IMG/VR virus record: IMGVR_UViG_3300033494_000001
Length of the DNA: 64,000 nucleotides
Reading direction: 5' to 3' (one strand)
Source of the DNA: a virus
Lineage: Duplodnaviria; Heunggongvirae; Uroviricota; Caudoviricetes
This document shows positions 30,671 through 31,327 of this stretch, one piece after another (position 1 is the stretch's first letter; each line of letters opens with the position of its first letter). Under the pieces are notes generated by a model. That model worked only from the letters and a program-made list of their open reading frames with translations, did no database searches and was not told the origin of the DNA. A program made the position numbers and the translations under genes.

Positions 30671-31327
30671 CTACAGATTGTCTTCTCCAATTTTTGTTCA
30701 TTCTCATTTAAATTTATAAGCTGTATTTTGCTTACCATTAGCAACTTGACCTAAATGACTACTATTTCCAGTACTAGGACTTTTAGTATATCCATTTTCA
30801 TACAATCATTGAATTGCTTCCATTGTTGATTTAAAAGTTTTTAAATATTTTCCATTTAAATCTAGTTGATTAATAGATTTTGAAGTATTTATTGTTCTAT
30901 GTTTACAAGAATCAATTTTGTATAATCGCAATACATCTCTAACAGTGTCAATACAGCATCCTATTTTCTCAGCAGTTGCTTTTACAGTTAATCCAGTATT
31001 AAATGTATTAACAATTAATTGATAATCAAATAAGATAGATCCGTCTCCTCCTAAAGTTGCATTATATCCATCTTTAAATGTTTCTAACGTTTCTATTCAA
31101 TAAGATTCCGCAGACGATAAATTAATTTCATCACATTCTTCTAGTAACTCAAGTATAAATTTATCTATTCCATATTTAGACATTGCATCATACAATGGTC
31201 GTTTCTCACATCTTTCCTTATTATAATCATTACAATGTTCTTTTCATCTTTTTTCTAAAGAATACGCTGATTTTCCTACATATTTCTTATTATTTACAGT
31301 ATTTGTAACGCAATAGATATAGCTCAT
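30671..31327 (-). CDS. GIY-YIG homing endonuclease with >=5 in-frame TGA codons (all at Trp positions)
   Basis: Frame-checked manual translation (657 nt): MSYIYCVTNTVNNKKYVGKSAYSLEKR-W-KEHCNDYNKE...SAESY-W-IETLETFKDGYNATLGGDG...; TGAs coincide with the conserved Trp of the GIY-YIG EKRWK.H and FWI.EL segments (compare I-TevI); absent from the ORF track. Confidence 0.8.

Follow-up and report, generated by a model that had tools for sequence, protein, structure and literature searches.

TGA codons at tryptophan positions of a GIY-YIG endonuclease gene and block-wise use of TGA in a large, putatively crAss-like phage

Can a reading frame broken by five TGA codons encode an intact endonuclease in a genome where the same codon ends other genes? 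The question is raised by positions 30671–31327 (minus strand) of a 64,000-nucleotide stretch of Caudoviricetes DNA (IMG/VR record IMGVR_UViG_3300033494_000001), which as a whole is referred to here as the window. An earlier note on this DNA had proposed that a GIY-YIG homing endonuclease gene lies there, that TGA is read in it as tryptophan (Trp), and that the locus bears the signature of genetic code 4. Our analysis makes it very likely that the window belongs to a phage of about 169 kb, distantly related to crAss-like phages, that itself encodes opal-suppressor tRNAs and decodes TGA as Trp in part of its genome.

The endonuclease frame and its TGA codons

Read on the minus strand from ATG 31327 to TAG 30671, the frame comprises 218 sense codons followed by TAG. 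It contains five in-frame TGA codons, at residues 28, 77, 174, 208 and 210 (31244–31246, 31097–31099, 30806–30808, 30704–30706 and 30698–30700), with no TGG at all and no TAA or TAG ahead of the terminal TAG. GC content is 27% overall and 12% at third codon positions (GC3). Under translation table 11 the longest stop-to-stop piece in 30556–31735 is only 96 codons, which is why this stretch appears free of open reading frames (ORFs), as had been remarked when it was first read.

The protein obtained with TGA as Trp matched the Pfam profile PF01541 with E=1.2e-10 and 42 bits, well over the curated gathering cut-off of 22.6 bits and across profile positions 1–77 of 78, and it matched the catalytic domain of I-TevI (PDB 1MK0/1LN0) with E=4.3e-9 to 1MK0; the continuous GIY-YIG frame expected if TGA is a sense codon was thus recovered. 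The GIY and YIG motifs are represented by (S)YIY at residues 2–5 and YVG at residues 16–18. R27, E74 and N89 correspond to the catalytic R27, E75 and N90 of I-TevI and occupy invariant columns of a 25-sequence alignment (A1), in which Y5 and Y16 are likewise invariant. With the profile threshold passed and the motifs and catalytic residues present, the predicted product belongs to the GIY-YIG superfamily. Its C-terminal region gave weak, sub-threshold Pfam matches of helix-turn-helix (HTH) type. Against I-TevI, the TGA at residue 28 pairs with the W of EKRW and the TGA at residue 77 with the W of FWI. Both of these pairings were anticipated in the earlier note; the invariance it assumed did not hold at residue 28, where Trp alternates with phenylalanine (Phe).

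A database search returned 562 homologs. In a DNA-level alignment of 46 homologs, Trp reaches at least 30% in just 4 of the 218 columns, and four of the five TGA codons occupy exactly those four. The column of residue 28 holds 24 Trp encoded by TGG, 20 Phe and 2 TGA, while TGG and TGA number 38 and 4 at residue 77, 17 and 3 at residue 174, and 41 and 4 at residue 208. The fifth TGA falls on a column of tyrosine, Phe and Trp. By our own combinatorial estimate, the chance of such a coincidence between TGA codons and Trp columns is about 5e-8.

The sequence of the gene was 100% identical in a second sample, on contig L092, which is the sole other assembly spanning the site. A database protein (P0001), carried on a 168,911-bp contig, is 100% identical to the translation with TGA as Trp, meaning that some pipeline has already called the gene with code 4. 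The intact frame, the TGA codons on Trp columns, the kept catalytic residues and the identity in a second sample together confirm that the gene stays whole only with TGA as a sense codon, and argue that it is not a pseudogene.

TGA as stop and as sense codon in different blocks

All genes of the window lie on the minus strand, at a GC content of about 31%. In a conservative core set of 109 ORFs (16,404 codons) TGG occurs 242 times and internal TGA never, and the stop codons are TAA in 81 genes, TAG in 16 and TGA in 12. At six of the 12 TGA-ending genes the stop overlaps the next start as ATGA, a classic sign that TGA is a real stop there; the gene at 15743–16597 (minus) is an example, and the others lie at 55926–56618, 32935–33183, 23360–23668, 20798–21118 and 2764–3009. 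The related contig L001 matches the window in the TGA pattern of its core genes.

Internal TGA is restricted in the window to five nuclease genes and one orphan, all six without TGG, and the nuclease counts (15 TGA, 0 TGG) differ sharply from those of the core (0 and 242; Fisher p=1.4e-24). In addition to the gene at 30671–31327, the nucleases comprise, on the minus strand, an HNH_2 endonuclease gene at 41348–41908 (PF13391, E=6.5e-9; 3 TGA, 0 TGG), an HNH endonuclease gene with an N-terminal HTH domain at 26730–27167 (PF01844, E=3.6e-5; 3 TGA, 0 TGG), a PD-(D/E)XK (PDDEXK_5) endonuclease gene at 28904–29299 (PF11645, E=6.8e-21; 2 TGA, 0 TGG) and a second GIY-YIG endonuclease gene at 7839–8450 (PF01541, E=2.8e-11; 2 TGA, 0 TGG). 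The orphan (39628–40404, minus) is the sole non-nuclease ORF of the window with internal TGA; it encodes 258 residues with a signal-peptide-like N-terminus and has 2 TGA, 0 TGG and a GC3 of 8%. In its single homolog (P0121, 54% identity), which is itself encoded with 3 TGA and 0 TGG, both TGA sites are occupied by Trp. A dispersed array of 17 canonical tRNAs (24849–42318, minus) encloses the orphan and all but one of the five recoded nuclease genes; neither a tRNA-Trp nor a UCA anticodon was found among the window tRNAs.

Since the 109 core genes use only TGG and keep TGA as a real stop, replacing table 11 by table 4 mainly recovers the five nuclease genes and the orphan. The window is not uniformly in code 4: recoding is block-wise and suppressor-dependent, not genome-wide or host-wide. 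Of the original proposal, the reading of TGA as Trp therefore survives, through the alignment columns, P0001, the suppressor tRNAs and the late block described below, and its extension to the whole window does not.

To look beyond the window, we walked outward from exact window proteins, and then from proteins of the loci they led to, to contigs of the same phage in JGI, ENA and SRA metagenomes, with SRR10915312/13 and JGI 3300033519 and 3300028549 among the source samples. Two tRNA(UCA) genes lie about 3 kb and about 10.6 kb past the high-coordinate end of the window, on either side of a block junction; both are 73–76 nt long and lack the long extra arm of tRNA-Sec, the selenocysteine tRNA. 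The first, on contig L089 (99.4% identical to the window over a 976-nt overlap), falls at a window-equivalent position of about 66.9–67.0 kb, with which the independent JGI contig L093 agrees, and has the loop AUUCAGC, a C73 discriminator and an A1-U72 pair. The second was read from the IMG/VR contigs L095, L098 and L099 and has a canonical CUUCAAA loop, G73 and a Trp-like D-arm. It sits at the divergent junction where, on these contigs, the window block terminates. The opposite block opens with TGA-free genes (a replication initiator and PhoH) and then becomes TGA-rich, with two membrane proteins, a PD-(D/E)XK exonuclease, TerL, portal and further genes that are tightly packed when called under code 4. 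TerL (732 residues; phrog_6681, E=6e-63) has 13 TGA and 2 TGG, portal (739 residues; phrog_6547, E=9e-43) has 4 TGA and 1 TGG, and TGA also outnumbers TGG in several neighbouring late-block genes. The layout, tRNA(UCA) included, recurs in relatives at 55–63% identity, namely L107, which lies on a 172-kb contig, and L117. On the downstream side of the window, the 9-kb contig L004 carries RNR and a DNA-transfer protein, with no internal TGA and no tRNAs. TGA is thus a stop in the window block and the main Trp codon in the late block, and the window endonucleases sit in the standard-code block yet follow the codon usage of the late block.

The nearest matches of TerL were uncultured gut phages at 45%, followed by crAss-like, Bacteroides, Flavobacterium and Azobacteroides phages at 27–31%, and those of the DNA polymerase were crAss-like phages and IAS virus at 38–42%. 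Megablast of the window against deposited phages returned tRNA fragments only, and an exact 40-mer scan of IMG/VR gave no match. The TerL and DNA polymerase matches suggest a phage of about 169 kb distantly related to crAss-like phages, a placement made with the major capsid protein not recovered. Shine-Dalgarno-like motifs were found at 10 of the 109 core genes (9%), and scarcity of these motifs is expected in Bacteroidota. We infer that the host is a bacterium of this phylum, whose members use the standard code. Gene content marks the window as the block of a large phage that serves replication and nucleotide metabolism and carries the tRNAs: its RNA genes include the 17 canonical tRNAs, a transfer-messenger RNA (tmRNA) and a group I intron, and its proteins include DNA polymerase A, helicases, a primase, an exonuclease, a PurZ-like adenylosuccinate synthetase and a TerD/TerC/vWA cluster.

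Suppressor decoding and its alternatives

The reading of TGA as Trp is supported by the alignment columns, by P0001, by the two putative suppressor tRNAs and by the TGA-rich terminase and portal genes. Early in infection TGA would terminate translation, so endonuclease mRNAs would yield only short truncated peptides. As the phage tRNA(UCA) accumulates, TGA would come to be decoded as Trp, making both the endonucleases and the late genes translatable; dependence on the suppressor would thereby tie the endonucleases to late or low-level expression. Such gating may be selected, limiting cuts in replicating DNA. Alternatively, it may be passive, with early translation not required and AT-biased mutation pushing TGG to TGA.

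Several points weigh against this account. Both the late block and the suppressor tRNAs come from assemblies other than the window, 99–100% identical to its phage, and the charging identity of the first tRNA(UCA) is uncertain because of its unusual loop and C73. The TGA-only rule is not absolute, because an endonuclease-like ORF at 6706–7287, with no Pfam match and lying inside a split group I intron, uses TGG only (6 TGG, 0 TGA). Insertion of Trp at TGA is deduced by comparing sequences, the timing of suppressor expression is something we infer throughout, and mobility of the 30671–31327 gene is suggested by its family membership and the varied contexts in which its homologs are inserted. Finally, two-fold K, E and Q codons of the core genes end in A at a fraction of 0.826, and as 0.83^15 is about 0.06, 15 of 15 TGA fits neutral drift, under which it would be no more than mildly surprising, and gating by selection is a possibility.

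Passive drift is an explanation that we take seriously without preferring it. It keeps the same suppressor decoding and denies the TGA-only usage any regulatory function: either nothing would select for translation of these selfish genes ahead of the suppressor, or they would have come from fully recoded phages, and AT-biased mutation would then have turned every TGG into TGA. At the A-ending fraction of the core, near-complete use of TGA is the neutral expectation; the endonucleases have a GC3 of 10–20%, lower than the 21% of the core, and the family moves between phages with different codes. Drift sits less well with the significant TGA preference of the intron endonuclease of Agate phages (Borges et al., bioRxiv 10.1101/2021.08.26.457843). 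It also has to account for the recurrence of the pattern in three unrelated nuclease folds of one genome and in relatives at 44–49% identity, and for TAG-type homologs that are four-fold enriched over their neighbours in the suppressed stop.

The remaining explanations fare much worse. An AT-rich genome of about 31% GC in which five or six ORFs need a sense TGA could point to a phage and host entirely in code 4, in the style of Mycoplasma or Spiroplasma, with TGA always Trp. This is very improbable, as the 109 core genes, with 242 TGG and not one internal TGA, show the reverse of what is seen in code-4 organisms, TGA closes 12 of these genes with six ATGA overlaps (L001 being alike), and the phage has tRNA(UCA) genes of its own. 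Its relatives infect Bacteroidota, with their standard code, and the near absence of Shine-Dalgarno motifs is unlike Mollicutes, which use them. Equally hard to credit is a decaying pseudogene, or a code-4 import dead on arrival, in which the TGA codons are real stops and no full-length endonuclease is made. Homing endonuclease genes do often degenerate, and table 11 splits this one into pieces of at most 96 codons; decay would nevertheless have to produce five interruptions that are all TGA, keep the 219 codons at 27% GC free of TAA, TAG and frameshifts, and place four of the TGA codons on the only Trp-rich columns while leaving R27, E74 and N89 intact and Y5 and Y16 as in every aligned sequence. 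The same phage also encodes matching suppressor tRNAs, and the TGA usage is shared by five other ORFs and by the essential TerL and portal. We regard as the least probable of all that TGA encodes another residue, such as glycine (code 25), selenocysteine, cysteine or arginine. Code-25 phages exist (Borges et al., bioRxiv 10.1101/2021.08.26.457843), ARAGORN labels any tRNA with a UCA anticodon as tRNA-SeC, and the C73 of the first tRNA(UCA) is unlike bacterial tRNA-Trp. The aligned columns are Trp or aromatic, never glycine or cysteine, and a length of 73–76 nt with no long extra arm does not suit tRNA-Sec. The second tRNA(UCA) has G73 and a Trp-like D-arm, and even the first has the A1-U72 pair typical of bacterial tRNA-Trp.

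Genomic surroundings, the endonuclease family and related systems

A terminator-like hairpin followed by a T-run (31421–31437, minus), about 90 nt upstream of the endonuclease start, stands between the gene and an upstream gene of 400 residues (31736–32938), and no Shine-Dalgarno motif precedes ATG 31327. GC-richer structured flanks had suggested a group I intron around 30671–31327; this candidate was rejected, since Rfam gave no intron core in 30300–32000 at E<=1 and a terminator-like site is present. The flanking ORFs are separate genes, which likewise speaks against an intron-encoded gene, and with no Rfam intron core in this interval the endonuclease gene appears to be free-standing. The direct repeat ATAGGNCTTGC around it was also considered and set aside, its frequency not being beyond chance. 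Contig L092 carries the gene, so no presence/absence polymorphism was seen, and a search of IMG/VR for relatives of the upstream 400-residue gene, made as a presence/absence test, found none. Homologs of the endonuclease sit at differing intergenic sites, mostly within tRNA arrays.

Two non-coding elements flank the gene. Between the 400-residue gene and the terminator, 31440–31735 (minus) is about 300 nt of non-coding DNA at 38% GC that folds better than shuffled sequences, only moderately so (z=-2.7); it has no Rfam match and no homolog among the fetched loci. At the other end, a conserved structured element of about 90 nt (30596–30690, minus, of which 30596–30672 takes in the stop codon and the downstream part) overlaps the seven terminal codons of the endonuclease, stop included, and reaches 75 nt downstream of it. 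It is homologous to positions 6555–6648 of L001, where it lies 3′ of an HNH_3-type endonuclease gene. A 45-nt core is nearly identical between the copies; after it come two hairpins, in which the substitutions are compensatory, and then a closing stem. The resulting shape is cloverleaf-like. Rfam gave no match for the element, and it was not among the tRNA calls. A scan of IMG/VR for the core found a single further exact copy, on contig L122.

The second GIY-YIG gene has a different setting. It begins directly after a truncated P-loop ATPase ORF and extends into a group I intron catalytic core at 7661–7902 (minus; Rfam RF00028, 110 bits, E=9e-28). A second group I intron with a split core lies at 6677–7558 (minus; partial RF00028 matches at 7372–7558, E=3.8e-7, and 6677–6709, E=1.3e-4). 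Over 6677–8757 (minus) the P-loop ATPase gene is thus apparently broken by two tandem group I introns, the first with the TGA-coded GIY-YIG ORF upstream of and overlapping its core, and the second holding the TGG-coded ORF at 6706–7287.

Other RNA genes of the window were observed alongside these, all on the minus strand. The tRNA gene at 48143–48217, also present in L002, has a good cloverleaf, a canonical T-arm and an 8-nt anticodon loop, UUCAGGGA, from which ARAGORN gives the 4-base anticodon CAGG; it scores below the Rfam tRNA threshold. We had considered it as an opal suppressor and rejected this, as the UCA in UUCAGGGA is not at positions 34–36 and true tRNA(UCA) genes were found. It could be a frameshift-type or other non-canonical decoder. 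A tRNA-like gene at 52877–52951, kept in L002 and L003, has normal acceptor, D and T arms and no anticodon, because its anticodon arm ends in a GAAA tetraloop. The phage also encodes a tmRNA at 46455–46788 (Rfam, 66 bits; ARAGORN tag peptide GETKVITMVARRSSMRLAA), which is noteworthy in a read-through phage, where ribosomes running past TGA stops may need rescue. Among the protein-coding genes on the same strand, the adenylosuccinate-synthetase homolog at 49603–50682 is of PurZ type (phrog_1211, E=4e-55) and lies beside a DUF7873 gene, which hints at a possible 2-aminoadenine (Z-base) modification of the DNA. A tellurite-resistance-like cluster at 53407–57260 comprises TerC, a vWA/TerF-like protein, PRTase_3 and TerD, and upstream of it is a protein of 703 residues (phrog_33734) with no close relative among deposited sequences.

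Homologs of the 30671–31327 endonuclease occur at 80 IMG/VR loci, nearly all in tRNA arrays of phages of 110–220 kb, and take three forms. One has no in-frame stops. Another, at about 20 loci, has 2–6 in-frame TAG codons, mostly at glutamine-like positions, and in the third TGA is the only or main Trp codon (the window, L001, L032 and L047, with L054 mixed). A tRNA(CUA) is present at several of the TAG-type loci and a tRNA(UCA) at L047 and L054. At the TAG-type loci, TAG makes up 42% of the glutamine codons of the endonuclease against at most 10% in its neighbours (p=5e-25). In L001 and L032, the closest lineage, the endonuclease is essentially the sole gene with internal TGA in a 20-kb neighbourhood, and the TGA codons of core genes are terminal, with ATGA overlaps. 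TAG forms occurring with tRNA(CUA), and stop-free forms elsewhere, suggest that the family adapts to the suppressed stop of the resident phage. Separately, in L001, where the endonuclease uses TGA, the tRNA array includes an amber-suppressor-like tRNA(CUA) at 2286–2360 and an unusually long, 84-nt tRNA-Trp(CCA) at 3415–3498. This recalls the suppressor tRNAs of Zeta crAss-like phages that have been reported as apparently idle.

The recoding strategy itself has already been described, and the present phage is a further example of it (Yutin et al. 2021, PMC7886860; Borges et al. 2022, bioRxiv 10.1101/2021.08.26.457843). CrAss-like phages, chiefly the Zeta group of 145–192 kb, carry suppressor tRNAs and reassign TGA to Trp or TAG to glutamine mostly in late genes, and introns and endonucleases were reported to be very dense in them, with TGA-bearing intron ORFs (Yutin et al. 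2021, PMC7886860). The genome of Lera, a Zeta crAss-like phage, is likewise laid out in two blocks, the replication block carrying tRNAs and five endonucleases, and a tRNA-SUP-TCA is present (PMC12386605). Our phage resembles the opal-recoded members of the Zeta group in its size (about 169 kb, within 145–192 kb), in its two divergent blocks with most tRNAs in the replication block, in its tRNA-Sup(UCA), in recoding TGA mainly among late genes, TerL and portal included, and in its many endonucleases and group I introns, one of them in a P-loop ATPase gene. It differs in that its TerL is only 27–45% and its DNA polymerase 38–42% identical to deposited relatives; the likeness to the Zeta group is one of size, layout and codon usage. 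In the TGA-recoded Agate phages, an early-gene group I intron endonuclease is among three families that prefer TGA, and it was proposed that this preference delays production of the endonuclease (bioRxiv 10.1101/2021.08.26.457843; Nat Microbiol 2022). Both cases thus involve an early-region homing endonuclease that prefers TGA, with delayed production as the proposed consequence. Here, however, there are five nuclease genes of three folds (GIY-YIG, HNH and PD-(D/E)XK), most apparently free-standing in a tRNA array, the usage is absolute (15 TGA, 0 TGG), and the lineage is a different one, probably crAss-like, with a probable Bacteroidota host.

With I-TevI and the free-standing Seg-type endonucleases of T4-like phages, the gene shares the GIY-YIG catalytic domain, the catalytic residues and the two conserved tryptophans, and like the Seg-type genes it appears intergenic and free-standing in a phage genome. 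Sequence identity is low outside the catalytic domain. Translation of I-TevI is held to late infection by mRNA structure, whereas late restriction here would use stop-codon suppression and not an RNA structure hiding the ribosome-binding site. Mollicutes and some endosymbionts with code 4 also read TGA as Trp through a tRNA with a UCA anticodon; in these organisms this is genome-wide and TGA is never a stop, whereas here it is a stop for 12 of 109 window genes and acts as a sense codon only in certain genes and blocks.

What this phage adds to earlier descriptions is modest: the completeness of the contrast, the three nuclease folds, the free-standing genes and the differing stop usage within one family. 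For annotation, standard table 11 misses all five window nuclease genes and fragments the terminase and portal genes outside the window, while uniform table 4 would run through a dozen real TGA stops; as each table errs, gene calling needs to be block-aware. With this finding, an uncultured and probably crAss-like lineage joins the phages whose self-encoded opal suppressor divides the genome between two coding regimes. The finding is also an unusually clean case of selfish nucleases aligned with the late regime, at 15/0 against 0/242 TGA/TGG, and a single endonuclease family whose stop usage differs by phage could serve for studying the adaptation of mobile genes to host-specific codes. A wider generalisation, that selfish endonuclease genes may systematically adopt the suppressed stop codon of the resident phage, is tentative and in our view rather doubtful. 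It draws on the one GIY-YIG family, whose three forms each matched the local suppressor tRNA and whose recoding far exceeded that of neighbouring genes. If this were a general, selected way of licensing nuclease expression rather than drift, the seemingly idle suppressor tRNAs of some Zeta crAss-like phages could serve mainly or solely mobile endonucleases, which could also help to maintain or spread alternative codes among large phages.

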